From: Spironucleus salmonicida
Taxonomy: Eukaryota
DNA length: 64,000 nucleotides
Direction of reading: 5' to 3'
NCBI RefSeq assembly: GCF_000497125.1
Contig: NC_090600.1
Coordinates: forward strand, 1,137,197 to 1,201,196
The position numbers and the translations under genes were made by a program. The notes under the pieces were generated by a model. It saw only the letters and a list, made by a program, of their open reading frames with translations. It did not search any database and had not been told where the DNA came from. This document shows, piece after piece, positions 459 to 58,221 of this stretch; positions within the stretch are counted from its first letter, which is position 1, and the number at the start of each line of letters is the position of its first letter.

Positions 459-1793
459 TCATTCACTAATTCGTACTAATAAATCATCAATATCAATAAT
501 ATCTGATTGCTCTAAGGCTTGCTTAACTTTATCAATGACAATATTTAACTAAGTATTAAAGCATAAATAAACATCATCATTTGTATAATTTTTGGATATT
601 TAGTTATCAATAAATATTACTAATTTTGAAATTAGCTTAAATACTCCACCTCCAAGTTATGGATGCATTCCACTTAACTATATCCCATGAATATAAATAT
701 TCCTTAGTGGACAAAATTAAATTGGAAATTAACATAATTCTAGTTTATTCACAACAGTAACATAACTATTAACTAGATTGGTTTTAGATGTTACTTCTGA
801 CTAACCTAATAATTATGATATTGGATAGATTAAATTTTCTTATTCCATAATAAACTTTTTGATAACGTTTTAGTTCTCACTAATTATCTCAAGTTCCTTA
901 ATATAATCATTAACCAAGCAATTATGCAATTTATCTACCACACCTGGTTGCATGACCTAATGTGTAACATTGATGATTGAAATAGATATTGGGTATCTAT
1001 AAACCCCTTCTGCATTATCCATGAAATTAACAAATTCTTATTGTTAAATTATTTCTTCCTTATATGATCCATTTAGGAGGAATAATGGATCATAAAATGA
1101 GAAATATACAATCGCTAATAGACCCAAAACTCCTGAAGCGCGAAAATCAGAAGCTGGTCGGTTTCCTTGAAACCCAATTCGTCGCCATATTTAGCTATCT
1201 GTAACACAATTTTGAAAATATTTCTAGATATTCATCTTTGATCCTGGAAAATTTTCTACCAATGTACCCATATTTCCAACTATTATTTCCATTAAAGTAT
1301 TACACTTTTCCGTATCAAAAGCTATATTTTATAGCTATTAAAATATTTTTAGATAATGCTTAACAAACTTGCCAGCACTTGCAGAATAAACTTAGAGTGT
1401 TAAAAATTCATTATATAGTTTATTATTAAAAATGAGCTTTTTTAAAATAATATTCTGAGTCTAAATTATAATCAAAAGAGCTGGCTGGGTTTATTGTGTT
1501 TATTAATGGTAAGCAATAATAGGAGTAATCGAAGATATTTGAAATATATCAACTTTAAGTACCTTTTTAGCTAGAAAAAAAGGTATTTTATATAAATTAA
1601 ATCCTCTAAATTTATTATATTAGTGAGTACAAAGGGCGTTAGACGTGTGACTATGTGGATGAAAATCAGTTGATATAAAATATATTTAAGACATTGCACC
1701 ATAGAATAATTGTGTTTCCTATTTATTTTTATAGTAAATGAATGCCCCATCGTATTAATCAACATCGGCTATATAAGTTAATGTTTGTTTCAT
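459..1793 (-). CDS. ELMO/CED-12 domain protein (ELMOD-like)
   Basis: WRRIGFQGNRPASDFRASGVLGLL matches the ELMO W..GFQG.nP.tDFR..G.LgL motif; start and stop are in frame with it. Confidence 0.85.
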
Positions 1794-7708: not shown

Positions 7709-7990
7709 TCACTGGATACTCTCTACTTGGTCTTAGAACAGCTCCTTGGTGAGGACCTCGACCTGCTCGAGAGTGATGTTGACTTTCATGGCGGCATCAC
7801 GTAACTTGATGAGCCGCTTCAGCTTCTGGTCCTTGAGGGTCTGCAGAACTGCCACAAAGGTTGCAGCCGATTCACCGTATTTACCAATGCAGCGCTCGTT
7901 GTACTTAATGTCTCGCACGAGCTCCACGAGCTCTGCCTATAGCACCGCCCACTATGCCTCCACCTGGTGCCGGAACTCTGCGTTCTGCAT
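7709..7990 (-). CDS. Small hypothetical protein (93 aa) in GC island
   Basis: MQNAEFRHQ...QDQVESIQ; C-rich TTCCCACTCCAAA before ATG, ends CAG TGA, strong GC3 bias. Confidence 0.65.
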
Positions 7991-8109
7991 TTTGGAGTGG
8001 GAATCTAGCAGAACCCAGAAACGTGCAAAGCATATTCTGCGGCAATAGTTACCTATGTGAGAACGAGCCCGGATACGCCTTAGGAGGGAATATTACTGCA
8101 TTCTTCAAA

Positions 8110-8307
8110 ATGCGGGTCAGCGCCCTCAAATACAGCCTCTCGGACCCCGCGATGATACGTAGTCCCGGACGTCCCGGACGTCCCAAGGCACCTGCAGCTG
8201 CGGTACCGGTGTAACCTGTGCTCCCACTGAGGGCCGCTCCCCGTAGGTCACGGAGGCTCACGAATACTCCAGACTTGGAGGCATCGCGGCCTAGAATGCT
8301 CTAGTGA
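8110..8307 (+). CDS. Small Pro/Arg-rich hypothetical protein (65 aa) in GC island
   Basis: MRVSALKY...RPRMLQ; AAAATG start context, ends TAG TGA. Confidence 0.45.
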
Positions 8308-8316
8308 CCGTGCATC

Positions 8317-8988
8317 TCACTCTTCGCGCAGCCGCGCCACGCAGTCATCAACGCCCAAAAGGTCGCCTGCACCCAGAATGCCCTCTAGACGGCGAAACAC
8401 GCGCTCCAGCACTGCGTTGTATCCCATATACACCTGATCATCAGCAAGCCTCCCAAGCTCCCCGTGAACCACCTATGCCACCTCACAGGCTAGTCTGAAC
8501 ACACAACCACAGAGGCTTGGGTGCATACCATCCAGACGGTGGGCTGAAAATCCAGTTAAGGGAGCAATCTTCTCGCCGCGCGGGTTGAAGCGCGGGTGCA
8601 CCTCCCCACGCAGGCTCTCAGTGTAGGCCTCCAACACAGAAGGTAACGGCGTACACTCCAGGAACAGCAGTTAATCTGGCTGCACCTCGTGTTGCAGCTT
8701 TATCCTAACCTGCCCCAGTCGGAAGAACTGTAGGACCATCTCATTCTATAGAAATTCCAGGTCAAGCCCCAGCACGCGTGAAACTACCGTGATCAGATGG
8801 ATAACAAAAGTTTATTTAACATTTCCTTATGATATACTTAATAATTTACTCAGTGATTCATTATTTAAGTTTAGTTCTAATTAAAATGATATTTTTTAAA
8901 TAATCAGGTATAATTATACAACTATTTTTATTATGGGATATTTCCTAAAATTATCCAACTTGCTATTTACTTAAATTATATATTACAT
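8317..8988 (-). CDS. Hypothetical protein; 3' part GC-rich, start uncertain (8988 or 8739)
   Basis: Open frame ...EMVLQFFRLGQ...DDCVARLREE with strong GC3 bias up to ~8800, ends GAG TGA. Confidence 0.55.
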
Positions 8989-10128: not shown

Positions 10129-11730
10129 ATGTTGTTCCTGGCATTTGCAAAATTACAACGCTATTGTGTCTATAGAGAACCATTAGATGTTAAACCATGT
10201 AAAGTAAATGCATTTAATGATAATATAGGAGTAATTTTGGATGTAGATTTAGAACTCAACTCAACAGGTTGGATGACTTTTAAGTCTAACTCAAACCCAG
10301 AATTACCTGCTAGATATCAATCATACTATGTTGGATACGCCGAAGGAAAACTTTTTCAACATCATATCTGGAATCATCATATGAATGTGAAAGATTGGTT
10401 TTTACATAGCTACTTACCATTCCCTGATTTTCCCGAAGAGCTTAATACATTCTTTAGATAAAATTTAGCATGGACTAGGTCAAATATAGGTAAGTTTGCT
10501 AGAGATAGATTCTGGAAAGAAGTTGGTAACACTATGTATCATTTTGATGGTATGGTTTTAGGGTACTAACAAGCATGTAGTAAGGCTGAATATATGTCAG
10601 AGTTAGATCTGTATATTTATGTTTCATCAGGAGATTTATTAGATGTCGTTGAATTTGCTCTCCCTACAATGAGACCTAATTGGAAAAATATGACTTAGGA
10701 AATGAAAGAGACCTGGGCGTAAATGAGAGATCACTGCTCTGGACTTGTTAGAGTTTCAAATGACACGATTTACCTTTCTTAGACTGCTTGGTTCTTCTAT
10801 GGTTCAATGACTCGTGTTTGGAAGGAATATGAGTTTAACTATTCTAGCTCTGCAGCCTCAAAGATATCATTTTCTTCTTATCCTGGATTTTCTTATTCCT
10901 TTGATGATTTTTATGCAACAGACTCTGGTATCATGTTCTTTGAAACAACTAACAATATATATAACACAGACCTATACAATTTATGTTCTCCTAAGTCAGT
11001 ATTGACCTGGATTCGTTCTTAAGTAGCCGGTAGAGCTGCTAAAACAGCCCCAGACTTTATCTAGCTTATTAGAAGATTCAATTCAGGAACTTACAATAAC
11101 CAATGGGTCGTCGTTGACCTCAACAAATTTAAGGAAAAAGCTGAAAAAGACGTAATGTGGGTTTTAGAACAAGTCCCAGGCAGAACAGCGGCCTATGATG
11201 GGACCGAACAACTGCTGAAGGACGGCTATTTTGGCAGTTTCAACATTCCAAGCTTAAAGAACGTAAGAAAAGTTTCAGGTTATGAACCAATGGCCGAGGC
11301 TGACCCCTCAGATGATTACGACGCCACGCCCAGAAACTTGATTTTCTAGCGCGATGCCCCGAAGGTCGATTCTTTGGAGAAAATGCAGCATTTGATGAGG
11401 TACAACGATTATTTGCACGACGCGCTTTCGCTGGATATGCAGGGAAATCCCGAACCGGGATTTGCAATTTCCAGCAGGTACGACCAGCGCCCTGGGGACC
11501 GCGCGAAATGCTTCGGCGGATTCGATAATAAAATTGGAATGTTCAACAGGAGGACAGGGGAATACCTAGCGTTGATCGTTTCGAGCCCTACGAACTAGAC
11601 AGAAAGCGCCCCGTTGTGGGCGTTCAAGGGCGACATGTATTGCCCCAGAAGAGGGCTTCCCGACGGGCCTTACAATTACCCAAGTATTACGGTTCCGCTA
11701 GAACTAAAGCTCAGGAAGCAGCCTGAATGA
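10129..11730 (+). CDS. Phospholipase B-like protein
   Basis: HCSGLV, FSSYPG..YSFDDFY, FETTNN, NSGTYNNQW, VLEQVPG, MRYNDY, ISSRYD. Confidence 0.93.
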
Positions 11731-17007: not shown

Positions 17008-18156
17008 ATGCAAATTTACACAAATCAGGCACCCGCGTAAGAGCTTTTAACATAAATAGCGCAAGTTGATACTACGCCTATTAAAAATCTTACATAATTG
17101 CTCACTGCACACTACCAAAAAATTATTCCAGAGCAAATTTCAGAGAAATTTATTATCAACGAAAAATCAAAATCTGAATAGTACACCCTACTCGGAACTG
17201 AGATTATTAAACAGGGAAAAGTGGCCCTGCTCATAATGGCAGGAGGTGCAGCAACGCGCCTCGGTGCGAGCTGCCCAAAAGGAGCATTCCCGCTCAACAA
17301 CTCCTGCCTCTTCGAAATCATCATCAAAAACGCAATCCGCATCGGATCGCCTGACATCATCATCCTGCTGAGCCGCGCAACCGCCGACACCGAGAAATTT
17401 TTCAAACAGAACGACTTCTTCAAATACAACCAAAATAAGCTCACATTCGTCTACCAGGCAGAGTACCCCGTGGTAACCCCAACAGGCGAAATCCTCGCGC
17501 TAGAGCACCAGATCCTGCAGTCGCCGAACGGAAACGCTGGCTTCCTCCCGGCGCTCGCTGCCGTAAATCTGCGCAACTACGAGTTCCTGCACGTTATCGG
17601 CGTTGACAACCCATTCGTGAAGCCCCTTGAGGCCGAGATGCTCGGATTTGCGATCTAGCGTGATTTGGACGTCGTTAATCGCGTGATAAGGCCGAAAAGG
17701 AACGAAAAAGTTGGCATTTGCGGTTTCAAGCGGAATGACTGCAGGTGGCAGTCGCAGATCGTCGATTTGAGTCAAGTTTTGCCCGAAATCGCGCCCACGG
17801 TTTTCGAGTACTCGGAGGTCAACTTCGACGAAATCGACCTCGCAAACAGCTTCGGGAGCATCGCAAATCACCTATTTTCGACGCGCATCCTGCTCAAAAT
17901 TCAGGAAATTCAGCAGGTCGGAATGGCGGTTCCCTTCCATTTGGCCATCAAAAAAGTTTCGTTTTTCGACTTTTAGGAGCGGAAAATTGTCGTTCCAGAG
18001 CGAGAAAATGCTGTCAAATTTGAGCACTTCATTTTTGACTACTTCCACTTCTGCGAAGTTGCGAAATTTGGCGTTTTTGAATGCTCCAGAGACGAATTTC
18101 AGCCTTTGAAGGAAGTTGGGGATATTGAAGGAATTTTGGAGAGATTGATGGAGTGA
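17008..18156 (+). CDS. UAP1: UDP-N-acetylglucosamine pyrophosphorylase
   Basis: KVALLIMAGGAATRLG..CPKG, SPNGNAG, GVDNP, EYSE, KFEHFIFD. Confidence 0.93.
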
Positions 18157-22970: not shown

Positions 22971-23441
22971 TCAATCAATGAAAGGCTCTAAGTTGTCTGA
23001 AAGAAGATTATTAAATACAGTCAGTAGTTACTGATTAATATAAACTGGTTCCTTGATAAGAGTGATCACAGGTGTATCTGAGTTATCTTCATCATCTATT
23101 ATCATTTGGTTGATGGATTTATAATCATTATATAATCTATACTCCGTTTTATTTCTAATTGTTGATTTAGAAGTTTAACCTCGTAATTTAACCAAATCAC
23201 CATAATCAATAGTATCAATAGTAGAAGTTGTTATTGATCTTTGTGTAATTGCTTTTGGCATAACTGATCTGACTGTTTTAATCTATTCCGAAGATATTGG
23301 TTAAAGCGGAATCTTAAGCTTTTAAACAGGATGACTAAACTATTATGCTTAACATATTATATTAATATCAACATTAGCACTGCTTTATTACTAAGTTATT
23401 TGCCTATGCAATAAATTTACAGATGAAAGACCTGATCTCAT
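22971..23441 (-). CDS. Hypothetical protein (156 aa)
   Basis: Fully read table-6 ORF MRSGLSSV...LEPFID. Confidence 0.55.
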
Positions 23442-23869
23442 TTTTACAATTTTATTATGATAATAATATTTGTATCAATTATTTCATATAACTTTCTGCA
23501 AAACTATATTTCTTAGTTTCTATATAAAATAAATGATATTTCTTAATAATATAATTTTTATTACTTTTAAAGATATTACATCTAACAATATTATACTACA
23601 AAATATCTATAAATTAACTAGTCTATTGTACATTATTACTCAACAATGTTAATAAGTTATCATTTGGCAGTAAAGGATGATACTACTTGAATAGAAAATT
23701 GATATTAAAGTATAAGATTTGAAACGTAAGGAATTGCTTAATACTCTGTTGTAGCTAATTAACGAAATGCTATATTCAATATATTTCTGCTGAATTATGA
23801 TCAATCCAGTGTGATTTTTTTAAGGATGGATCCAACTTAACTGATTGGTTATTATATAATTAGAAGCTC

Positions 23870-24714
23870 ATGTTAGTAGTCTCCGGTTCGAGGCCTCGAA
23901 AAGGCTCCAGAAACCAGTTTCTCGATAACCAGTTTGATCTTTATTCGGTATACACCTCGAATCCCATTCTTAAGTTTAGCGCGAAAAAGAGTTTCCAGAA
24001 CAGGCTGGGCCGAAAGTATAATTTGTGATTTCCAATTATGTATTATCGTGTTCTCCCTCCAGATTATCCACATCCACTTCCAGAAATGTTATTAAAGTTC
24101 CACCACTAGCGTTCCATCGCGATCGCTTGCATCCGCGCTAACTGTATTGACTACCGGTTTATCAGGCGGATATTCTTCCTCAAGTCCAACAAGTACATCG
24201 ACACCCAGCTACAGGCTGCCGTGGAGCGATCGGAGATCCTGTAGTTCGCCATGACCATCCTCCAAAGCAATCTGGATGAGCAGCATCGCAATGTATGCAC
24301 CAACATGCTGCGGCAACTTACGCAATCCACCACCCGTCTCGGCTATGATGCGGTGCGAGAGTATGTCCTACTCGAGTGAGATTTTAGCCCCTCCACTAAA
24401 TGGACCTTGGGCTCTACCCGCCATTCTACCAGCTATAGCCCCAGGTACTCGACCGCCAGCTGCAGTTCTGGGTTCAGCGCATCCAGTCGCACCTTGTAGA
24501 TACCGGAACACACTTCCTATCCCTCAAAGAGTTTCGACCACCTCTATTTCACTTTCAGCCGGAGTTCGACTTAGTCAACCGCATTCTTTGCATCTTCTCA
24601 GATGCTGGGCAGCTCGAAAAAGTGGATACCACACTATTCAGGGTATTCGTCGAGTCTCCAGTCGTGGTGATCCGGCGCAACCTCGAGGTCGGCCTGATCA
24701 GCTCCGTCGACGAG
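23870..24714 (+). repeat. Inverted repeat arm A (845 bp, GC-rich)
   Basis: Reverse complement of 28803-29647; ORF-track translations identical across both arms. Confidence 0.97.
24086..24379 (+). CDS. Small hypothetical protein (97 aa), copy in arm A
   Basis: MLLKFHHQRS...REYVLLE; C-rich upstream motif, ends GAG TGA, GC3-biased. Confidence 0.65.
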
Positions 24715-24882
24715 CTCAAAGAAAAACTCAACACCTTTTTAAAAATCTAAAATAGAATTTATGCTACCAACTATATATTTTTACATGATATTATATACTG
24801 CTTTTAATTTTGTAACTTACTAAATTAAATATACTATAATTATAAATATTATTGCTACCGCTCCAAATTAAATGTCCGTTGA
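24400..24882 (+). pseudogene. VPS25: Truncated/chimeric Vps25 copy (first ~105 codons plus unrelated AT-rich tail)
   Basis: Matches the 28656-29117 gene up to the arm end, then loses the Vps25-like C-terminus. Confidence 0.65.
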
Positions 24883-25240
24883 GAAACTTTTAAAAACACA
24901 ATAAGAACTGACTGACCAGATTCAACATACTAAATCATAAATTAAGAACTTTGATGAGAAGATATCTGCACTTAAACTAGAATAACTGACATCTACTGCA
25001 AATTTAGAAGGATTTTAGTAATAACTAGTAGAAGCTAAAATTAGCGAAGAACAACTGAACTAATAGTTGCAATAGATAACACAAGAAGTGAACCATCAAA
25101 AGGAAAGAATCGAATCGTAGAAAAAATATGCTGAGAATAAAGTTGTTTAATAGTAGTATCTAGAGGAGAAATCAGTTTAAGATAAGCTTGAAACACAGAT
25201 ATTAGAACTAATTGAGTAGAAATAAGCAAGGATGGATTGA
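24872..25240 (+). CDS. Coiled-coil hypothetical protein (122 aa)
   Basis: MSVEKLLKTQQELTDQ... Q/E/K-rich heptads; C-rich upstream motif. Confidence 0.7.
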
Positions 25241-26172
25241 AAAATGGTTATTTTATCTTTATCTATTTTATGATTATTCACAATCATTTTATTAAAAGTA
25301 TTAAATATGTAAACTCATTCATTTAATATAATAGAACCTAATAAAAGATCACTCACTGTTTTAACTTAAAAGTTTATGAAGAATTAAGAATTTCTTTCTT
25401 AATATTTAATGATGGATTGACTTTGTTCTTTTTAAGTTAAACCCTATCACCCACATAATTATCCACTTATATAAATTCATTGTCTAAGGGTTGTGCTTTA
25501 TTTTTCTTGATACAATTGGACATTTAAAGGAAATATGATATATTCTTCATACAATATATTATTAATATCATAAAATTACTAAGTTTTTAGTTTTTTATAT
25601 TATTAAATAGTTTCCTGAAAGGATATGAGTACAAATTACATTATACATCCACTTATTATAAAATAGACATTATATAGTTAACAATAATAAATTTAATATT
25701 AGTTGCCTTCCTTCTATTATACCTGCAATATGATACTTTTAATTAGGTTCTAGTACATTTATTATCGAATATGTATATAGTATAATTGGAATAATTAATT
25801 CTATTCCACAGGCAATAGTTAAATATATAGAAATTCTATATAGTGTTTATCTAAGGATCACATTACAATATTCAAATTAATAATAAACTGTTACCTATAA
25901 ATACATTATTTATATAAATTAATATAATTTTACACTATTAATGTGATGGTTTTAGTGTTCATACTCATTAAAATAACATCTAGTAACATAATTACTGTAT
26001 CGAAAAATAGTTACTATATATAGATGATAAAATATTTAAATAAGTAGGCTAAGTTGTGAATGTATTATTCAATTCAAACTTCTAATAAAATGCTTTACAG
26101 CATCAAATTAAAAATAAAACATATTGGATAATTTTAGATATATTTAAAAGAATAAATATAAAAACTACTCTA

Positions 26173-26928
26173 TCAGGATTCTGTCTCCTCTTCAGTTGAC
26201 TATTACCAGTCAGTCATACCTACTACCTCCTCGATACTACCTTCCAATTCATCGACTAAAATGATATTATGGATTTATTTTTAATCAGTAAAATAATTGA
26301 AGATCTCTGGAAATTCATCTAAATCAATGCCTTCAGATAGTAAATTATCATCAATATATTGATTAAAGATTTAGTAATTAGGCTGAAATCCGTTCTCTGC
26401 CAAATATGTAAATAATTTGATAGACTGTACGATCTAATTAATTTGTAGCTCATCGAAAATTTCATTTTTAATATGAATTTTTACTTCTTTTTTTGGTGGT
26501 AAAACTTCTTTTTGTTTAAACTGTAAGCTTGGCTTCTGAAATGGATTTTTAATTATAATGGATATAATATCACCTACTACCTTTGGAGCAATCGGAAATG
26601 AAAGAAACTAGAAAAACTGTAGTAAAGTTTCAGTAGAAACAAAATGAAACACTGACTACATGAAGCTTTAAAAAATCGTTTCCTCTATCACAAAAATATG
26701 TTCCGGATCCAATTAATCATATAGTTTTTAAATCTCGTAATTCATTTTTTTATAATCACGAAGGGCAGTAGAGGCCTTAAAGGTTGTTTCGGTGTTTGAA
26801 CGTGATAATGGTTACGCTTGGGTCTAGAGTGGAATAATTGCTTATAATTTATATTATATCGTAGATTGTTAATTTGGTTCTTATTAAAGTGCATTATCAA
26901 CTATAAACGGAGGTGAGCCGCAACCCAT
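26173..26928 (-). CDS. Hypothetical protein with N-terminal MGC acylation motif (251 aa)
   Basis: MGCGSPP...EEETES fully read in table 6. Confidence 0.7.
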
Positions 26929-28655
26929 TTTAAGTATATATAAGTTAATAATATCATAATGTATATTTACTTTTAGATGTATTCACAATTTTATTTTTTC
27001 TTACATCAAACATAATATGAAAAAAATAACAACAAAACCTATTAAATATATTGTGACTGTTTATATTATGAAGTTTGAATCTTTAATAGATGAATCTGTC
27101 TAAAGTTGTATTAATGTCGAAACATTGTTAACAGATAATATATATTCAGACTAATTTGACATTAGTCTAATAAAGTCCTTTGATTCGATTATAATCTGAT
27201 TATTTAGTTAATATTAATAGCTACTAAAATATTCAGAAACTGCTATATTGTTTATATAATTTTGAAGCTTTATTTAAACCAATACATTTCTTTCAAAATT
27301 TGTAAAATTCAAATAGAGCTTTTAATTTAATAAAAAGAAACTTTAAATATGAAATGTAATAACAGAACCCTATAATTGAATTACTTTTTTTTCTTAGACA
27401 GAATTATCTAAGTTTTAAAATTGTAAAATTAATAAAGGATTAAAATAACTATTTAATGTAATTTTGGTATTAATAAATGTTGGAATATCTTTTACATGAT
27501 ATGATTTAACAAAAATATTGAAGCTATTAATTTAAAAAATTAGAAACATTTCTTTAGAAAGATAGGGATTGTTAGTCAAGCTGCTATTCAATTCGATTTT
27601 AAGAAGTATATTTTTGTTACTTACAAATATTTAAGCTTAAGTAATAATATTTGAAACATGTGTACCAGTAGTTAATATATTATTGAATTAATGAGAATAA
27701 TATTTTGAACTAACTTAATCATAGAATATCATTTATATTTAGGAGACTGATGATCCTATTAACTATTACGTCCTGAAATTACAAAAAATATCATTATAAC
27801 AACATTTGAATAACTAGATATTATTATGTAAAAAATGTTAATTAATTGTGGCACTACAGATTTAGTCTCTCAAAGGTGCCTCTGCATATTTTTCTGTCAG
27901 TAGACTAGATCTTGTATTATTCCAAACCCAATCTATTTTTGGTGTATTAACGAAAAAAGTTTTCATAAATTCTGGACATGTTTAAGGAAACATTTATATA
28001 TAGAATGATCTTATTCCATTAATTGGGGATAAAAGGAATTATTTAATTTGCAAACAGTCTTATATTAGAAACGGTATGACTTAGATTTTTTAAATAAATT
28101 AGGTTTCTTTGTAAAATCCTGTATCAAATGTAAGACTCAATTAAACATTCTTCTATATATACACGTCGAAACTTAATTACAATTTTGTATTCTATTAAAA
28201 ATGTGCATATGTGCTAGTAATGTTAATATCGTCAAATGATAATGTCACTATAAATTTAGTGATACTTTAACATTACAAGCTATTTTAATTAATAATGATA
28301 TCAATTGTCGAAAATTTTGATTATTATACTGACTTAAAGGCAGATAACTAAATAAAACAGAAATTAGCTAGTTAATACATTTTACACTTTACTAATATTA
28401 TATAGTAATACATAAAATTTATTCATTAGACAAATAATGTCAATTAAGAATATTTTGATGAATGAAAAAAGTTATAAATAGGTTAAGATCGACTAAACAA
28501 TACAGTTCTATATCATTAATAGTTAATTAAAGTTACTTTTAAAATATGAAGTATTTCAACAAAATTTTATGATCGTATAGAAAGAACTTATCAGGGAAGC
28601 TAACTATTTGTTAATAGTCAAAGAGATAAATTATATAGAAAATATATCAGCCTTC

Positions 28656-29117
28656 TCATCCTAACTTTACACCATCTACACGGCCTAATTTATCCCGTGA
28701 GCATTTCCACTATTTTTATGCTTCCCCTTATTCTAGTAGTTCATAGAATCGATTTTCATTAACAAATTCTCTAAGCTAGGTTTACTATAGTTTTTCTTTT
28801 ATCTCGTCGACGGAGCTGATCAGGCCGACCTCGAGGTTGCGCCGGATCACCACGACTGGAGACTCGACGAATACCCTGAATAGTGTGGTATCCACTTTTT
28901 CGAGCTGCCCAGCATCTGAGAAGATGCAAAGAATGCGGTTGACTAAGTCGAACTCCGGCTGAAAGTGAAATAGAGGTGGTCGAAACTCTTTGAGGGATAG
29001 GAAGTGTGTTCCGGTATCTACAAGGTGCGACTGGATGCGCTGAACCCAGAACTGCAGCTGGCGGTCGAGTACCTGGGGCTATAGCTGGTAGAATGGCGGG
29101 TAGAGCCCAAGGTCCAT
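28656..29117 (-). CDS. VPS25: ESCRT-II subunit Vps25 (153 aa)
   Basis: YPPFYQLQP...RQLQFW resembles Vps25 FPPFFTLQP...QL..W; also PPLF, GQLEKVD and C-terminal DGVKLG (cf. GVKFF). Confidence 0.8.
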
Positions 29118-29647
29118 TTAGTGGAGGGGCTAAAATCTCACTCGAGTAGGACATACTCTCGCACCGCATCATAGCCGAGACGGGTGGTGGATTGCGTAAG
29201 TTGCCGCAGCATGTTGGTGCATACATTGCGATGCTGCTCATCCAGATTGCTTTGGAGGATGGTCATGGCGAACTACAGGATCTCCGATCGCTCCACGGCA
29301 GCCTGTAGCTGGGTGTCGATGTACTTGTTGGACTTGAGGAAGAATATCCGCCTGATAAACCGGTAGTCAATACAGTTAGCGCGGATGCAAGCGATCGCGA
29401 TGGAACGCTAGTGGTGGAACTTTAATAACATTTCTGGAAGTGGATGTGGATAATCTGGAGGGAGAACACGATAATACATAATTGGAAATCACAAATTATA
29501 CTTTCGGCCCAGCCTGTTCTGGAAACTCTTTTTCGCGCTAAACTTAAGAATGGGATTCGAGGTGTATACCGAATAAAGATCAAACTGGTTATCGAGAAAC
29601 TGGTTTCTGGAGCCTTTTCGAGGCCTCGAACCGGAGACTACTAACAT
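28803..29647 (-). repeat. Inverted repeat arm B (845 bp, GC-rich)
   Basis: Reverse complement of 23870-24714. Confidence 0.97.
29138..29431 (-). CDS. Small hypothetical protein (97 aa), copy in arm B
   Basis: Same sequence as 24086-24379. Confidence 0.65.
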
Positions 29648-29732
29648 ATAATAATAAGTCCCTGTAAAATAAATCAATCTTAATTTTACTTACCGGACAA
29701 CATAGCTCGCGAAGAATAACCTACAATAGTGA
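29550..29732 (+). CDS. Small hypothetical protein (60 aa) crossing the arm B outer boundary
   Basis: MGFEVYTEQRSNWLSRNWF...KNNLQQ, ends TAG TGA. Confidence 0.4.
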
Positions 29733-29941
29733 ATAAGTTAAAATAATTCTACTCGAAATTCATTATTGTTATACACTAAAATATATTATCTAAGATAATT
29801 TATGTCAAACGCTACAAATTATATATTTAGTTGATTTTAATTTTCGTACGATTTCTAGACCTAAATTATACTCTTTCGAAACGAAAGCTGTCAACTGCAA
29901 ATCTGTACGCTCAAATTTATCAAAAGAAAAACTTAAAACCC

Positions 29942-31714
<1,773 letters not shown>

Positions 31715-34740: not shown

Positions 34741-35655
34741 TCACACTAATTTTTCTGGTATTTCTGTCTGATCAAAACATGCAGTTAACTAATCTGATAA
34801 ACTAATTACATTTGTCTCCACTACACCTGCCTTAGTTTTTTAACGTTTTTTATGCAGTATCTTGAAAACTATAGTTCCGATACAAATAATTATTAATATA
34901 ATCCCTATAACTAATGCAATTACCCATTTTTAATCAGTGGGAATTACTGGAAATATCGGAATTACTGGAGGATCTTCTTAATCTTCTTACGATTCTTCAT
35001 CTTTCCATTTTGATGGCCAGCACATTTAACCTATAATTGCATAGTCTTTTGAACATACAGTACATTTACCAAATGCATCTTTTACAGTATTTGGTAAACA
35101 TGTTTCGCAACTTTTGCCATCTGAACTACAAGACGCACAATTAACAGCATCTTCACACTTACATTCAGAAGTAAGACCTTCGACACATTTAGTAGGAGTG
35201 CCATCTTTACAATAGTAATTATTTTCCATATTCGCACAGCTATCTATACACTCCCCGTTAAGTTTTGTGATATAGGGTTTTTCACATTCATAGCAAAAAG
35301 TTTCAGACTCACAATGAGTGCAATTATCCTTACAGTAATTGCATGTATTAGTAGTTAAATCACAGTACCCACGTGTTACTTCTGCACAATCTTCACGTTT
35401 ATGACAAAGTATGGTACAAGTTTTCGTGGATGGTTTCACAATAAGACCTTCTATACATTTAACACATTTGCCATTTTCACATTACTCACATTCATTTACT
35501 TATTTGTTATCTGTACAATAACATCCTTGGCCTAAATAGATTTGATCAGAACATGGTTAACAGTTAACAGTTTAATTGCTGATTGCAGGGCAGTAGTAGC
35601 CAGCCTTGCAAGTCTTAGTGACGATTGAGCAGGTACCTGATACTGAACTCAACAT
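34741..35655 (-). CDS. Cysteine-rich membrane protein (CxxC-rich, C-terminal TM)
   Basis: Many CxxC/CxC motifs, TM IALVIGIILIIICIGTIVF followed by KILHKKR. Confidence 0.9.
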
Positions 35656-35659
35656 TTTC

Positions 35660-35678
35660 TATATATATATATATATAT
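35660..35678. repeat. (TA)n microsatellite
   Basis: About 9 TA units, 4 bp upstream of the cysteine-rich gene ATG. Confidence 0.9.
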
Positions 35679-36510
35679 CAAACACATAATTATAATATTG
35701 TTGAGTTTCTGGAAATTGGTAATAATAGCTATATTACAAAACCAATACTGAATTATAGTTTAAAAAAATATATGATATGATTTGAAAAATCATAACAGTT
35801 TACGGTTTTGAATTTATTAACAATGATTCTATTTTAATACTATTATTAATAGTAATACTTATCTTAATCGAAATAGTTAAGACCTTTAAATTTAAATTTT
35901 ATTTAACATTTTTAGCCTTATTAATTATGTTAAAGAGTAAAGTCATTAAAATAATTTAATCTCGTAATACTTAATATTTATCATAAATAATTCATTTGAA
36001 GTATAAAATCACAATATCTAAGTACTAACTAATAATAGAGAATTTGTATCTATAATTACGTTAACCATAATTAGTAGATAATCAGAACCTTCTACAAACA
36101 GGCAGGAGTTATACGTATGTTCTATTACTATATCATTTTATATAAATCACGGCATTTGTCTCCCAACATTCAGATTAATACTATAAGCAATAGCATTTAG
36201 CGTTTAACTATCTAAGCACACTATATTTATTTTTAATGGAATTATCCTACTATCTCTTACTAGTCCCTTATGTTTCACATATTCACTATAATAGTGAAAA
36301 ATAAAAACGCTGTGGAATACCCACATGCAATAAGTTTAACTTCATAATATTCTATAATTGCTATTTATATTCATTTCCCTAGCACAAGAGCTAATAATTT
36401 ATTATTGTACTAAGTTTCAGTCTTATTTTCAAATAATTATAGAAGGACATCCACTTCAAATATCAAAACTAATCTTATAATATTCTAAACTATTAGTATG
36501 TTTCCAAAAA

Positions 36511-38055: not shown

Positions 38056-38553
38056 ATGATGATACGGCCAATTTTAGACTCTCTTCTTACACCCGAAGAT
38101 ATTAAAAAATACAGATATGATAAGACATTTAATTACAATTTTATATCACCAGATGAAATTGAATCCTTATAAAATGCATCATCAATAACTCTTATTAGAG
38201 ATTTTTAAATAAAGGCGCATATACCTTAAAGACAACCAGTGATTTTTAGAAAAGAATTATAATAAGGATAGTAAGATATTTAGTTTCCATAAAAATCAGA
38301 AGTGTTTAGAAGACCTAGATCGGCGCCAAAAATTAGTTATTCTCAAACTATAAAGCATTAGGATTTTATTGTTAGTAATAATTCATATTATTACAGAATA
38401 CCTAATTAAGGGTTACTGCTAAAAACTAAAGTTTGCAAATCACCAGCCACACACAATAACCCAATATAAATCTAACATAATAAAAAAGAACTCGGAATAA
38501 GATTACGATAAAATCGAGGAAACTGTTTTTTAAATGATTTTAAAGCTAAGTGA
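38056..38553 (+). CDS. Hypothetical protein (165 aa)
   Basis: MMIRPILDSL...DFKAK, ends AAG TGA. Confidence 0.6.
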
Positions 38554-38639
38554 TTATATATTTAGTTTAGTTACTTATTATTCTATATTTGGTTTCTAAT
38601 ACACTATTTAGTATTATATAGAAATTTCTATATATAAGC

Positions 38640-39092
38640 ATGAGACGAAATGCGTTTAGTCTTTTACGAAACTTTAGATAAATGTAAATCGAACAGAACC
38701 AAGAATTTGCATGTATTTCGAAACAATATTCATAAATTATTTCGCCACTACCTTCAATGGATTAGTAGAAGTAAAAATAAAAACAAATATTAAAGAGTCC
38801 CCCTAAAATTCATCTAAATTTTGGATCAGATAATGACTATAATCCCACCATAAGCTGTAATTACGATAATTTAAGAAGAGGAACACCGCGATTGCCAAAA
38901 TTTTAACAACTGTAAAAGTAACCTTAAGTTTTATAGGATGTTCAACTATAAAAACAAATAACATAGTTATTCATAGACAAATAAGATTATTAGGATATGA
39001 TTGAAGAAAAAGATAATAATTAAATAATTAATAAATAGTTACTAACAGTTTTTAATAATCTACTCGACGAAAACTTAGAATTTTATATTTGA
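38640..39092 (+). CDS. Hypothetical protein (150 aa)
   Basis: MRRNAFSLL...LEFYI; Q-rich, coiled-coil-like end. Confidence 0.55.
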
Positions 39093-40564: not shown

Positions 40565-43500
40565 ATGAGTGACGGTTTGCCATACGCCCCTGTTTCACCA
40601 ACAGAGCGTCGCAGACGCGCACAAGAGCTTCTAGCCCGTCATGCACGAGCATGGGATGCTCAACTTGCAACTTTTACGACGCAGCAGCCGAAGAATTCAC
40701 AGCACCACTCGAACCTCCAAGTTGACGCCGAATGGCGTGAAAAGTAACGTGCCCTCGCCCGTGCTGACGCTAATTCACGTGCACAGTATGAAATTTCATG
40801 GCAAAATTCGCTTAGAACTAACGAGCGCGTTGTGGAGCTCAAGCTTGGCAAGGTCAACCCGGTATCGTTCTTCAGGAAGGACACGAACAACTTAGCCATA
40901 AACAACATCCTATAGATGCCAGCCTACGTCCCAATCAGTGAGAAGTTGCCACATGACCTGCTACAGAAAAATTACGACTCGCTACAGAACCACCTCCAAC
41001 AAATCGAATGCCCAGAAGACACAGACGAGATCGAACTTCCTCTACAAAATTCTCCTTCCTCAGAAGAAGAGGAAAGTGAAATTCAGCAAGAAAATGAGTA
41101 GCAGAACGTGCAAGTCGTGAAGAATAAATTCTAGTCCATGATTCCTGCAGGTGCGAATGCCTAAAAAGCTGATGAAATCGCCCGAAAAATTACCAAAAAT
41201 AGCAACAAAGTCAAGGTTTAAAGGATGGATTTAAATAAAATTAATAAATAAGCGATTATTGAACCTTTGGATAGCATTTAAACACATATTAGGCCAAGAG
41301 TTTTAATCAGTAATTTGACGGTGATTTCAAGTGAAAATACACAAGATTCTAATTTGAAAATGAAGAATATTGGTGATTGTAGTTTTATGATATAAATAAA
41401 GCAGAGAAATTAAATAACGTAGAACGCCAAAAAAGAAATAATTAGGAAAGAAGTAAACGATGAGTCTACCGCTGGTCCTAGTATGAACGATATTGACGCT
41501 GTTAGTTAAAGACCCAGTTAAGTAGCTCCTGGGTCACCAGCTTCAATTTTAGGGAAGCTTAAGACAGCCAAGTTCACTTCAAACACATAATAATTCAATA
41601 TTACGAAAAAACCAATTATTCAAGCTCCTACTGAATCTGTAGGCAGTGGCCAGAAAGAGAATTAGATATAACGCGATGATATGGCATAGAAAATGTTAGA
41701 GAAGTCCTCAACTCCTTCCCACTTAAGAATTCTCGCTAATAGATGTGTTTAGAATTCTAGAGGTGAGATGGAATCAAAAATAATTGTGGCCACCAAAGGA
41801 GCTAAATGGCTTTGTGGTTCTGGAGAAAGTAGCAATATTGAGTTTATAGTTCCAAATAATAAGTAATAATAACCTGGTATTATTTTATAGGAGTATGAGT
41901 TAGTTTTTGTACCTGCTGTTGAAGTTGAATTTGAAAATAGAGATGATCAGAAAAGTGGGTAAAACAGTGTTATATAGACAGAAGGAAGTACTAGTGTATT
42001 TATCAGATGCTATGGTATTTAGAGCTGGTGTTTATAGCTTAAAAAATAAATTGAAACTTTAAATAATATAGGATAAGGTGTAGTAGAGAAGATATATAAC
42101 CAGAATGTATGCTAAGAAATTCTTTATAGTCTCAGCGATGAAAGCGTGAATATTTCAATCCATAAGAACAAGGAAGTTCTAGAAAAAGAAGATATTGCTT
42201 AAAGCATTAAAAAGAAAATTGAGAGTACTGTTATTTAAACTTATTAAAATAAGGTTGTTAAGGCTAAGTGGCTTATTGATAAAGAAATTATTAAACAATT
42301 TTTATATGATCTTATTACAGAAGAATCAGGGTATAACATGTCAGTGTTAGATATTTTTGATAATTACTACGACTTCGATGCACATACTAGATTTGAAGAG
42401 GTGGGCAATGAAGTTTTTGAGTTTTTAGACTCTATTGATACGACATAAGTTCAAGCCTATCCTTTCATCTATTTATAATTTGCTAAAAATAGTATCTTTA
42501 TCAACAGAGCTAAATCTCTTAGCAAAGTTATTTTAAAGCATTAATACCTATTTTAGAATATAGAAATATTTGATAAGTTCCGTATAAATTCATGTTAAAT
42601 AGTTAGAAAGCGACTTTTGGCATTAATTTCAGATGAAAATGCTGAAAAAAATATAATTATAAACCAAACTAGTGATTCAGAGATGTATTTAATGCAAAAG
42701 GCTACACGTGGAACCATTATAAATGCTGCCCTTTTTTCTGAGTTTAAACCTAGTAAAATCGTCAACTTGTTAATTAACAAATTAGTAAATGAAATTACAC
42801 TTTCTGTAAATAAATAAGTTAAATTTGATAAAACTAAGTAGTATTCAGTCAATGAGCAATAATAAATTTTTGCAAACAAGCGACCAATTTATGATGGTAA
42901 TTTGATTAATTTGTTGTATTTAACTGCTGCTGTAAGTAATAAGAAACCAGTGTGGGATATTTTTAATATACTGAATAAAGTATAAGATGAAACTTTAGAA
43001 GAGAGGAAATTATAGCTTTTAGAACTCTTAATGTTAAAAAGCATTATATTTGATGTTGAAATTTAGGTTAATTCTGAATCTGATAATACAATCAGGTCAA
43101 TTATTGGTAAAGCTGTAAACTAGAAAATTATTGATTAAAAACTTATTGTAGAGTAACAGTACGATTTTATGGTTGATAATACAAAATTATTTGTTCCAAA
43201 ATATACAATTGAGCAACTCAATAATCTTATTCAACTGATAAAGGCTAATTCTACACTTGATAATGAGCAGTTCCTAGAAAAGTTCACAGTGGAAGAGATT
43301 AGTTTAACAATAGTACCTGATTTGGTGTTTTTATTAACCAGAGAATTCTTATATAGTCAAACAATGAAGCATCGTGTATTTTTAAAATTATATTATTTAG
43401 AAACGGCTAATATAAATGATATGGATCCATTTAATATACTTACACTGGCTGAAAAGATTATATTAACATAAAACTTAAATTTCACTACTCAAAACTTTGC

Positions 43501-47646: not shown

Positions 47647-48540
47647 TCATTCCCCTGTAACTCTTTTATATCCAAATGTACTATTTCTGATAAAATAGAT
47701 TAATAGTCCTGCAGTGACCAAAACTCCAGCCCCAGCTCCCAAAAGTATTCCATATTTTAAATGCTCATCATTAACACATTTATATTCGTCCCCAACCACT
47801 TAACAAACATATCCATTATTACAGTCACCTATATTACCACATTCCGCCTTAAGACAGTTACCATTAACCCCAGCTCTCCAACCAGGTCTACACTCACAGT
47901 AATTATCAGGATCTTATGAATCATTATAACAGCGAACACACATTTTTTCGTAACTTATGAAGTTATTACCTCTACAGTCACAATTCTAATATTTTTCATC
48001 AGTACATTTACCTTATCCATTACATTTCCCATGTAACCCATCACATCCTCCTTTTATACAAGAGAATCCGCCTTCATATTGCTCTTACTTAAATGTATAT
48101 TTTGGACAGAAACAATCCTTATTTTCGTCCCCATTGCATTACTCCAAACAGTAAATTTATCCACTTTAATCAATTCCACAAGGACCATTGATACAAGATG
48201 CAGGGCATGTTAGACAGTGCTTACTATTATCTTCAAAAACATAGCCATCACATTTACCACAAAGTGCGCCATAGAATCCATTTTTACATATACAACCATT
48301 TGCAAAAGTCGAACCAAATTAGTCCAGACAAGTTTTATTATTTAGGCTTTCATTACACTCCACACAAGTTCCAGAATCATTACAGTCAGCATTTTTCTTA
48401 CAGAAATATTTTCTGCAGATTCTGCCATTTTGGTAATTTTCTCGATTGTAGCCTTACGGACATGTGCATGATTAATCAATACAAAATGACTGTGCTCCAG
48501 CTGGCTCTATACAGTTTTTATCAGTTTTACAAATGTTCAT
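47647..48540 (-). CDS. Cysteine-rich membrane protein
   Basis: CxC/CxxC-rich, TM YGILLGAGAGVLVTAGLLIYFI with short tail GYKRVTGE. Confidence 0.88.
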
Positions 48541-49054
48541 TAGGTGTTAAAATAAAAAAGCAAGCAGTTATTTATGAGATATAATAATAATTTTAATATA
48601 TTAGCAATTGTATAATAATTGGGAGTGAAAAATGTATTTAATACTATATAATAATAAATAAATTATTAAGTCATAAGATTTAATATAATATACAAAACTG
48701 GAAGAGTAATTTTTTAAGATTAAAGATTTCACAAATATAATTGCGGATATTTAAGAATATGTAAATAAACTATTATTAGTTAATAATGAATAACGGCCTA
48801 CCATTATTTTGTGATTTTCTATCTAAATAATGATCGTATATCAACATATCTGGAAAATACTTACAAAATCAACTTAAATAAATTTAAAAATGATCTTTTA
48901 TAGGTAATAAACTTTATCAATATAACTTTTTTGAATATATTAATTATCATATGTTGTTGAAAAATCGCATTTATCAAAAAGGATTAAAAATAATGAATAC
49001 TTCCTTATCTTATTCTACACAAATAAGGAATATACATAAATATCCTCTCTCCAA

Positions 49055-55717: not shown

Positions 55718-57091
55718 ATGCAGATCCCTGTGTCCCATATAAACTCGTCACTAGTGCCTGCAAAATCAGATGTATACTCTAGATAACTAGCTAAGTAGCA
55801 ATAAGCTAGAATCAAAGAGTAATAGTAAAGAGAACATCTTAAATAGACAAAACTCTAATAAGAAATGTTAGAAGTTACAGGAAAACCAAGAATCAACTAA
55901 AATTTATCTGTTAACAAGCCTTTTAACTAACGTTAAAAATAATATGAAGAACACAGCAAGAAAAAATATTAAATTCTTAACGAAATTCAAAAATAACAGC
56001 AATAAAAGCTCACATTCAACCCAAAATTGAATCCAGCTAGCTTATACCTAGCTGAAACGCGTAGAGCACTAGATATATAGGCATCAATGCTTAAAACTAG
56101 CAATCTACAAGCCATAGAGGATACACACTATCCAGAAATCACAGAATATGCAGCATCGCTCAAACGAGAGGGGAATATCTACGATAAACTATCTTAACCT
56201 CGAGTTAAACCAGGAGAACTCTTGATCGAAAGTGCGTCGTTATCCGAATATGCGGTCAAGCCTAATAAACAAGAATAGATTCTCCATGCTGAAAAGATGC
56301 ATAGCGAATATAGCCGGTTCCTAGTTAAACGCGAAGTGTTGAAGGAATAATTTGACCGCGAAATGATAGGCACATGTGAAGAAATGGATGTTGAGCGTAA
56401 AGTGCGTAGAGACGTTTTAGCATACAAGGCTAAAATTCGTGAAATTTAGTAGTAAGGATCTGAAAAACAACAAGAGGCCGAAAATTATACTTTTAGACCT
56501 GAAATCAATTAGATTTCAAAACTTTTGACTTAAGAATAAGCAGATTTTAATGAGCGCTATTATGATGAAATCGAGTAACTCAAGAACCGGCAGATAATAA
56601 ATCAGAAGAAGAAAGAGCTACAAGAATTTGAAGTATTTTCTTTCTCCCCAGTAACTAATACGAAGAACAAGCACTCCGATCCGGATCAGTCGCAAATCGA
56701 ATTCTTCGAGCGCTAGGAAAAGCTCATAGAAAAGAAGAAGAACTAATAAACAGAGAGGGATAACCTACGTCGACTATAAGAAAATCGTGAGATTCAGTAC
56801 GTCCAGCAAAACTGTAACAAATCACACACGACTAAAGTTCCACAAATTGTGAAGTGCAATCTACTCGCCTTGGATCAGGACGACAGAGACAATTTAGCGA
56901 CATAGCTGCTAGATTTTGATAATCTTCCCGAAGATCAGAGGAGGAAGACCCAGAGACAGCTCCAACTTGGTGGTGGTGTGCCACTTACTACAGCCTACCT
57001 GATGGACAGCATTGCGAGCCACAGCGAGCGTGTTAAGCGAGCAAGAGAGGATAGGTTGAATTTATAAAACAAGCTTAAGCTTAGGGAGTGA
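55718..57091 (+). CDS. Coiled-coil protein with TFxPxIN-type motifs
   Basis: TGKPRIN, TFNPK, YTFRPEIN, FSFSPVTN; ends GAG TGA. Confidence 0.75.
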
Positions 57092-57102
57092 ATTTTACAT
57101 AA

Positions 57103-58221
57103 TCACTTTAGACCGCTGTAGTTTCGGATATTTGGAAGACCAATTAACTGGCTGCTCCTGATTGGAGACGATACCTTTCTTACTGGGCTTCGAATTCTTG
57201 ATGCTGCCGCTCTTTTGACGACTTTTGGCTTTATAACCTCATCGCTCGTCTAGCTTTCTCGCTTGTGTAGTTAGTCTTGTCTTTGCTAAATATTCCAATG
57301 TCTGCCTTCTTGGATGCATAGATATTACTATTGCCCTCCTAACACTGCACCTGGCCTAACTAATCGCAGCCATGCTATCGCTTCACGGGCAGTAAATTTG
57401 TACTGTTGCATCAATAGAAGCCCAATCATTGTTCCAGTGCGTCCAAGTCCAACTCTGCAGTGTACTGCCACTCTAGGTTCTTAATAGCAAATTTTAAGAA
57501 ATTTTTCAACAATTTCATCCGAAGGATTTGAACCGTCAGGATATGGTAAATCATAATGATGAATTCCATTTCTAACAAACTCAACTTTGTTGTACAAAGA
57601 CTCATTCAGGCGGACAATTGCAGTAACATTTAGAGATTTTAATTCCTTTATTGCTTGTTACGGTGTGAACGGCCATGTGCTAAAAAGTGGAGACGATTCG
57701 GAAATAGGAGAAGGTAGTGCAAATATTTTGTTTGGAATCACAATAGAAATTAGCCCATTCTCTTTAGTGTAATATTATCTGAACAATTCTATATTAAAAA
57801 GCTACAAATTGAACACTTTTTGTGTTAGAGCTCTATGAAGTGCCCATAATAAATCTTCACACAGAAGCTAATAGTGAGATATACCCGGTGTTGCATCTCT
57901 AAAACCTATAGGCTATAAAGTGTTTGTGATGCCAATAACTTGATTTATATCTACTCCTGAAAAAAGTGAATAAGCACCTGCAAAAAATACAGAATTAGCA
58001 ATAGCAATATCAGTTTTTGGTGTTATCAAATTAAATTTTTGTTTAATATTCAGGGTTTATAGTAAAAAGTCCACTAGATCTGGTAATATAAAAGGTCCAA
58101 TATACTCTGGTAAATTTTCTGCTTTGTACAGTGTTACTGGACATATTGAGTTTCCTTAGGGTATACTTTGGTCCTCCATTACACTGAATATAAGATTTGG
58201 TGGAAACTATACATCGCCCAT
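57103..58221 (-). CDS. CDC14: Cdc14-family dual-specificity phosphatase
   Basis: FRDA, VRLN..LY, DL.YPDGS.P, VAVHCRVGLGRTG, AIAWLRLVRPG. Confidence 0.92.

Follow-up and report, generated by a model that had tools for sequence, protein, structure and literature searches.

Codon usage flips synonymously at the edge of an inverted repeat within a Vps25-like gene of Spironucleus salmonicida

In the window that we analysed, an AT-rich stretch of 64 kb of the Spironucleus salmonicida genome (GC, 29.3%), a gene for a Vps25-like protein runs across the end of an inverted repeat, and at that very end its third codon positions pass from being mostly G or C to being mostly A or T. This codon-usage flip is real, exactly placed, and synonymous. 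The best explanation of the step would be an inverted duplication followed by GC-biased gene conversion between the two arms of the repeat, which interpretation we advance tentatively, giving it somewhat less than an even chance, and of which we infer all three elements: that conversion took place, that it was GC-biased, and how old the repeat is.

The window is read with code 6, in which TAA and TAG specify Gln, many of those triplets being found in frame within long, Pfam-supported ORFs such as those of ArgRS, phospholipase B (PLB), a kinase, and amino-acid transporters. The Vps25-like gene (Table 1) contains seven of them, one in its first 105 codons and six in its last 48. The original prediction had described the first ~105 codons of this gene as ending mostly in C or G and the last ~48 as reverting to A or T. 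When computed on each side of position 28803, the GC3 of 28656-29117(-) was 72/105 (0.686) within the repeat versus 11/48 (0.229) beyond, which significant step (Fisher p=2.0e-7) confirms that description, the split being 105/48 codons at 28803. The maximum-likelihood GC3 change point was codon 105, which codon contains the last identical base, 28803; its likelihood ratio was reached by 0/500 permutations; and all of the 18 final codons inside arm B had G or C in the third position. The choice among synonymous codons changed in parallel: inside the arm Gln was encoded by eight CAG and one TAG, but outside by three TAA, three TAG, and no CAG (p=0.0014), and Glu by five GAG and one GAA inside versus six GAA outside.

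Table 1. Location and main characteristics of the Vps25-like gene, the inverted repeat, and the other GC islands and internal GC3 steps of the window.
Feature	Position	Strand	Characteristics
Vps25-like gene, complete	28656..29117	-	153 aa + TGA under code 6; P0001; identical protein in protein collection
3' tail of Vps25-like gene, AT-rich, single-copy	28656..28802	-	48 codons + TGA; within inter-arm spacer
Arm A	23870..24714	+	Second copies of ORF52, ORF113, and first 105 codons of Vps25-like gene
Arm B	28803..29647	-	Exact match to arm A; GC 0.42-0.54 by segment
Repeat edge, 14 nt	28789..28802	-	Pairs with 24715-24728 at 12/14 bases, in register
Spacer between arms	24715..28802	.	4088 nt from exact blocks; GC 0.241; holds several ORFs; bounded on both sides by Vps25-type arm ends
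52-codon ORF + stop (ORF52)	29489..29647	-	ATG is first triplet of arm; GC3 0.56; arm A copy 23870-24028(+)
ORF113, GC-rich	29138..29479	-	Wholly within arm B; GC1/2/3 0.54/0.34/0.63; arm A copy 24038-24379(+)
Truncated Vps25-like copy at arm A	24400..24882	+	105 identical codons, then 55 non-coding-like codons to TGA
Six other GC islands	7732-8765, 11153-11701, 17209-17967, 40576-41031, 56898-57436, 60230-60488	.	45-56% GC
PLB GC3 step			0.31 to 0.64
UDP-GlcNAc pyrophosphorylase (UAP) GC3 step			0.33 to 0.66
ArgRS GC3 step			0.22 to 0.42
1743-aa ORF GC3 step			0.50 to 0.25
Amino-acid transporter (AAT2) GC3 step			0.38 to 0.19
ORF457 GC3 step			0.31 to 0.51
979-aa coiled-coil ORF GC3 step			0.18 to 0.56

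GC1 was 0.65 within the repeat versus 0.48 outside, whereas GC2 remained unchanged (0.30 versus 0.27), and the amino-acid classes exhibited no shift, with GARP residues numbering 19/105 inside versus 9/48 outside, and FYMINK residues 22/105 versus 12/48. Since both GC2 and the amino-acid classes were constant, the codon flip is synonymous, and a synonymous shift points in turn to a neutral process rather than to selection on the protein. Expression-linked codon selection was rejected as the cause because the step falls within a single ORF (the original prediction had argued that one transcript cannot have two levels of expression), because the truncated copy shares the step, and because DNA of non-coding appearance in another island reaches 62% GC. 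A foreign origin of the GC-rich part was likewise discarded, since an in-frame TAG (Gln) at residue 13 marks that part as native to a code-6 genome.

To score the 48-codon tail we used a codon model trained on 13 of the window's AT-rich ORFs, almost every one with a Pfam match. In the frame that continues that of the arm the tail scored +9.5 bits, the mean for true in-frame chunks being 9.6 (sd 5.5, n=94); this value exceeded those of 282/282 off-frame or antisense chunks and of 266/266 putative intergenic segments, while the other five frames of the tail were negative. The GC1/2/3 of the tail were 0.48/0.27/0.23. These scores establish that the AT-rich tail is genuine coding sequence that continues in the same frame, so that arm and tail constitute one continuous gene.

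The product of that gene is probably a very divergent Vps25, which assignment is based on one structural source together with a sub-threshold profile match. Like Vps25, the ESCRT-II component of family PF05871, the protein is small, has the Vps25 fold as its nearest predicted fold, and gives a weak N-terminal profile match; unlike the recognized members, it lies below the Pfam cut-off and found no sequence homologue among 1.84 billion representatives, from which phmmer recovered the query only. The match to the Pfam ESCRT-II profile had an E of 0.13, scored 13.0 bits, the cut-off being 27, and aligned residues 6-51 with profile positions 4-54 of 138; residues 52-153 and 86-153, when searched alone against Pfam, gave no ESCRT-II match. 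The profile support expected across the junction thus failed to appear, this sub-threshold match ending before the junction is reached. The ESM Atlas model (pLDDT 0.74, pTM 0.54), for its part, was structurally closest to a cluster whose 1150 members all carry PF05871, with a TM of 0.65 (query) and 0.51 (target) and 141 residues aligned across 4-153, which comparison is one between predicted models from a single source. On that predicted model the fold was a tandem winged helix with Vps25 as the closest relative, the next neighbours being other tandem winged-helix proteins. The assignment to Vps25 made in the original prediction therefore received support from the predicted fold over residues 4-153, but not from Pfam at its cut-off or from any sequence homologue found. 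AlphaFold2 without an alignment yielded an unusable model (pLDDT 39), and a search of solved structures returned no Vps25 chain up to an E of 10; its matches to a designed repeat protein (E=0.0019), a SULTR/STAS transporter (E=0.35), and AP-3 sigma (E=1.4) we treated as chance, and a Pfam match to STAS (E=0.01) was set aside as below the cut-off. In a word-index search of the protein collection 1 of 12 candidates passed, that one being the query itself, and the proteins of 84-268 aa yielded no third copy. No gene for a binding partner of Vps25 (Vps22, Vps36, or Vps20) was identified in the window. A survey of ESCRT parts (PMC8394649) covers diplomonads, for which the portion of its text available to us does not name Vps25. 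Because the tail is coding in frame and the Vps25-like fold extends across the junction, arm B was not inserted into unrelated DNA.

A repeat search found a sole repeat of at least 60 nt in the window, with which result a sensitive self-BLAST concurred; the only other self-match was a perfect 24-nt palindrome at 2492-2515. The two exact arms of the inverted repeat (23870-24714 and 28803-29647) proved identical at 845/845 nt upon base-by-base comparison, and with the edge included the repeat covers 859 nt (23870-24728 versus 28789-29647) at 99.8% identity. Read in gene orientation, each arm carries, in order, the 52-codon ORF, the 113-codon ORF, a gap of 20 nt, and the first 105 Vps25-like codons. 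ORF52 and ORF113 lie in the same frame with one TGA and three codons between them (29477-29647(-), 23870-24040(+)), and could represent a single gene interrupted by a premature or read-through stop, or else two ORFs that share a frame by coincidence; Pfam searches assigned no family to the one or to the other, an Rfam search of 23000-30500 revealed no RNA gene, and a tRNA search of the window found none. The coding tail follows arm B only: the read-through tail at arm A had GC1/2/3 of 0.18/0.18/0.29 and an in-frame codon score of -10.3 bits, and the truncated copy was absent among the proteins found by the search of the protein collection. The last 144 codons of ArgRS (29942-30376(-)) adjoin arm B from the outside and have a GC3 of 0.42 versus 0.22 in the rest of that gene.

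The ends of the repeat and the limits of the GC-rich DNA coincide. Within arm B the GC was 0.423 in the upstream part with ORF52, 0.503 in ORF113, and 0.543 in the Vps25 part, and in 200-nt windows the GC dropped at 4/4 arm ends, from 0.42-0.53 inside to 0.23-0.30 outside (p 3e-3 to 2e-9). The GC change points and the ends of identity were, respectively, 28803/28803, 24718/24714, 23866/23870, and 29639/29647, for an offset of 0-8 nt, the GC being maximal at the inner arm edge (0.62). Local DNA alignment of the 300-nt flanks beyond the arm ends revealed no homology, 131/500 and 382/500 shuffles having matched the score and AT-rich controls having equalled it; a peptide resemblance between the two tails was accordingly dropped, the flank alignment being no better than the shuffles or the real AT-rich controls. 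By our own arithmetic, with 8 islands in 64 kb, the chance of both ends of a random segment lying within 8 nt of island edges is ~1e-5, so that the repeat and the island are causally linked, in some direction.

The two differences of the 859-nt repeat are at 28800 and 28802, where arm B reads ATA versus CTC in arm A, similarity ending past the edge; that both fall within the 14-nt edge has a P of 2.5e-4 if one end is named beforehand and of 1e-3 for either end. At these two positions the functional copy carries A or T, and the other copy G or C. The contrast of 0/845 differences in the interior with both differences at the edge (2/14) fits an arm-to-arm homogenisation, being the pattern of edge escape expected under conversion; a young copy with an error-prone junction, however, would look alike. 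Were the arms to recombine with each other, the spacer would be inverted and the tail attached to the opposite arm; either of the two could therefore complete the gene.

Under the explanation that we favour, an operon-like block composed of the 52-codon ORF, the 113-codon gene, and the first 105-109 Vps25-like codons would have been copied in inverted orientation 4.1 kb away, and gene conversion from one arm to the other would since have preserved the identity of the two. If that conversion favoured G and C, it would have driven the synonymous and the non-coding sites of the arms GC-ward, or else have protected them against the mutational drive towards AT by which the remaining genome would be set at about 25% GC. 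Conversion would stop at the end of the homology, which limit would leave the single-copy 3' tail at the AT-rich equilibrium of the genome and would place the flip at the last shared base. The four GC steps, the perfect interior, the synonymous shift, and the published association of duplicates with GC all fit conversion, and the A/T of the functional copy at the edge mismatches would fit an AT-ward decay beyond the reach of conversion. Several observations nevertheless count against this explanation. The GC peaks at the inner arm edge, where a simple model with fewer conversions at the edge predicts the opposite; GC islands and sharp GC3 steps are found in genes of the window that have no second copy there; the 3' end of ArgRS, outside the arm, is also mildly raised in GC3; the duplication event could itself have introduced the two edge mismatches; and the passage of GC3 from 0.23 to 0.69 needs a repeat whose age allows synonymous saturation and, by a rough equilibrium estimate, a bias near 0.87. 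In the proposal of GC-biased conversion contained in the original prediction, therefore, the part that stands is the GC step at the repeat edge, located to the codon, at the four arm ends and within one gene, whereas the conversion and its bias stay plausible, seven other ORFs having steps without a repeat in the window. The premise of that prediction, that recent duplication would leave an AT-rich gene as AT-rich as before, allows, moreover, for a GC island that predates the copy.

The window contains eight GC islands of 259-1034 nt and 45-56% GC, two of which are the repeat arms; for the six others neither self-BLAST nor an all-against-all ORF comparison disclosed a second copy within the window. 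Several of these six cut through Pfam-supported genes (PLB, UAP), and several abut a start or a stop codon, with that of the 1743-aa ORF beginning 11 nt past the ATG, and that of PLB ending 29 nt before the stop. An internal GC3 step reached by 0/500 permutations occurred in 8/23 ORFs tested, namely the Vps25-like gene and 7/22 others (Table 1), in which latter seven the island GC3 was 0.38-0.66 versus 0.69 in the Vps25-like gene. Since these steps occur in 7/22 other ORFs without a repeat in the window, steps within genes are characteristic of the genome and do not require a nearby repeat. For UAP no close paralogue was found in the protein collection, the next match being 47% identical—an unannotated fragment such as that of arm A would escape that search—and the closest named relative came from Hexamita inflata (43%).

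The all-against-all comparison, which covered 750 ORFs of the window, recovered only the arms, two old amino-acid-transporter paralogues, and two weak or partial matches. One of these last was a weak match of 46 aa between 38538-39089 and 22974-23474 (50% identity, E=6e-5). In the largest island a GC-rich ORF fragment at 8323-8562(-) resembles only the last 83 residues of the ELMO-domain gene at 462-710(-) (30% identity, E=2e-9), and from sequence similarity looks like a partial and diverged GC-rich duplicate of the 3' end of that AT-rich gene, 7 kb away. The same island includes at 8105-8316 a segment of 61.8% GC with no codon periodicity and no convincing frame; if that segment is non-coding, the GC enrichment extends beyond codons. 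Two ORFs of the window, 34741-35946(-) and 47647-48804(-), resemble cysteine-rich membrane proteins, the product of the second having no relative but itself at E<=1e-8 among the proteins of 211-674 aa that were searched.

The opposite direction of causation—that the GC-rich block of arm B belongs to the many sub-gene GC islands present in this genome and predates a recent inverted duplication—we consider quite possible, though less probable than conversion. On this view, the islands could be caused by hotspots of recombination or breakage or by a regional mutation bias, and one local process, for instance break-induced repair at the edges of a hotspot, would define both the island and the copied unit. 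The comparable islands and GC3 steps in genes that are single-copy within the window favour an island that came first, as do the other islands that stop at gene ends (the 1743-aa ORF, PLB) in the way that the arm starts at an ATG; furthermore, one process would cover all the islands. An identity of 845/845 is what would be expected of a young copy, and the mismatches beside the junction fit an error-prone replicative repair. What this alternative needs is an unproven coupling of the island edges to the duplication breakpoints at both ends, without which it would fall back on the coincidence calculated above (~1e-5); besides, two differences confined to the 14-nt edge would be unexpected in a brand-new copy unless synthesis at the junction were error-prone.

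The literature bears on both of these directions. According to the parts of the publications at our disposal, the G+C of S. salmonicida varies along the genome, the genes of high GC3 are located in GC-rich segments, and neither mutation nor selection explains them easily (Andersson et al., 2007, PMC1805757), which description accords with an island-first history. The same may be said of the lower GC3 in the S. barkhanus orthologues, from which the GC-rich segments appear recent, although that difference would be compatible with either a recent origin in S. salmonicida or a loss in the S. barkhanus lineage (Roxstrom-Lindquist et al., 2010, PMC2874811). The locus studied here shares with those segments an AT-rich code-6 genome, GC-rich DNA with high-GC3 genes, and the failure of both expression level and gene transfer as explanations (PMC1805757, PMC2874811), but the two papers, as far as their accessible text goes, treat whole genes or regions and leave the cause open, whereas here the boundary is intragenic and lies on a repeat edge. 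For the duplicated regions of S. salmonicida, defined by a length of 2 kb or more and 95% identity, a mean GC of 44.7% versus 30.7% elsewhere has been given (Xu et al., 2022, PMC9509377), which excess, if the island came first, would require that GC-rich DNA be duplicated more often. Our repeat resembles those regions in that duplication goes with raised GC, and differs in that, at 0.85 kb, it is below their cut-off of at least 2 kb; in the sections of that report that we can cite, no GC bias of conversion is claimed, no boundaries at the level of the base are given, and gene conversion is mentioned only for arrays of surface proteins (PMC9509377).

The nearest precedent for the favoured conversion is that of the palindromes of the primate X chromosome, in whose arms, according to the available portion of the study, GC-biased conversion has raised the GC above that of the flanks (Jackson et al., 2021, PMC8981503), conversion explaining only part of the GC excess. 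The likeness consists in inverted arms around a unique spacer, a near-perfect identity, and a higher GC in the arms than in the single-copy flanks; the differences, in arms that here measure 0.85 kb as against the large palindromes of primates, in a GC contrast of about 25-30 points (GC3, 0.69 versus 0.23), in a gene that is cut through, and in a conversion and a bias that were measured in primates and that we infer here (PMC8981503). Our literature search found no paper joining biased gene conversion with Spironucleus. The locus adds an unusually clean new case to phenomena already known: the GC-richer repeats of this lineage and the GC-biased conversion of palindromes.

Three further explanations are each less likely than either conversion or an island that came first. 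In the first, which we hold to be improbable, arm A would be the retrocopy of a read-through transcript extending from the first ATG to an A-rich tract inside the Vps25-like gene, and the GC island would reflect a transcription-linked bias. The arm does open exactly at an ATG and terminates at AAAGAAAAA, and genes for reverse transcriptase are plotted in a figure of the S. salmonicida genome, as presented in the part of the paper available (PMC9509377). No poly(A) tail, however, follows the A-rich tract, which tract is in arm B as well; the target duplication is 3 nt at the most (CTC); a transcript of three ORFs must be assumed; and the islands that other genes carry centrally or at their 3' ends are at odds with this reading. 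The second, to which we attach a comparably low probability, is a chimeric ORF, in which a GC-rich fragment would have been copied to both sites from elsewhere and fused in frame at arm B to an unrelated AT-rich coding sequence. The limitation of the Pfam ESCRT-II support to residues 6-51 and the failure to find a homologue that spans the junction would agree with a chimera, nor are 48 open codons rare where TGA is the sole stop. The Atlas alignment to the Vps25 cluster (141 residues over 4-153, TM 0.65) argues, by contrast, for a single protein; the tail scores as native coding sequence in exactly one frame; the arms share identical ends, and are hence not independent insertions; and no third copy was found among the proteins of 84-268 aa. 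The last and least credible of the three is an assembly artefact, with the inverted copy (arm A) absent from the genome, for although 845 perfectly identical nt might raise that suspicion, the repeat sits within a contig of 1,732,135 nt, long reads far exceed the arms in length, 4.1 kb of unique, gene-bearing DNA separates the two arms, the 14-nt edge contains two real differences, and the GC3 step of the arm B gene stands even without arm A.

The cause of the GC-rich segments of Spironucleus was left open in 2007, and the report of 2022 on the GC of duplicates gave no mechanism, within the text of each that we have drawn upon (PMC1805757, PMC9509377). The Vps25-like gene constitutes a natural experiment in this respect: one gene, with one transcript, one protein, and one level of selection, has two parts that differ only in the possession of a second copy, and its composition changes at that base; the cause of the GC islands of Spironucleus thereby becomes directly testable at this locus. 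That strong GC-biased conversion between repeats creates and maintains the sharply bounded GC islands of S. salmonicida as a whole is a wider proposition, which we regard as doubtful. If conversion does make the islands generally, this locus would be its proof at base resolution, with a bias far above that of mammals in an organism without known meiosis. If, more narrowly, the conversion bias is causal here, a recombination-like repair would be able to shift GC3 by 45 points within less than 1 kb, and so to remodel codon usage, in a tetraploid protist that is putatively asexual, and the screens for codon usage and for gene transfer in such genomes would need to mask repeats. If, alternatively, the island came first, then the islands would be units of duplication, which conclusion would be equally informative on how they originate.
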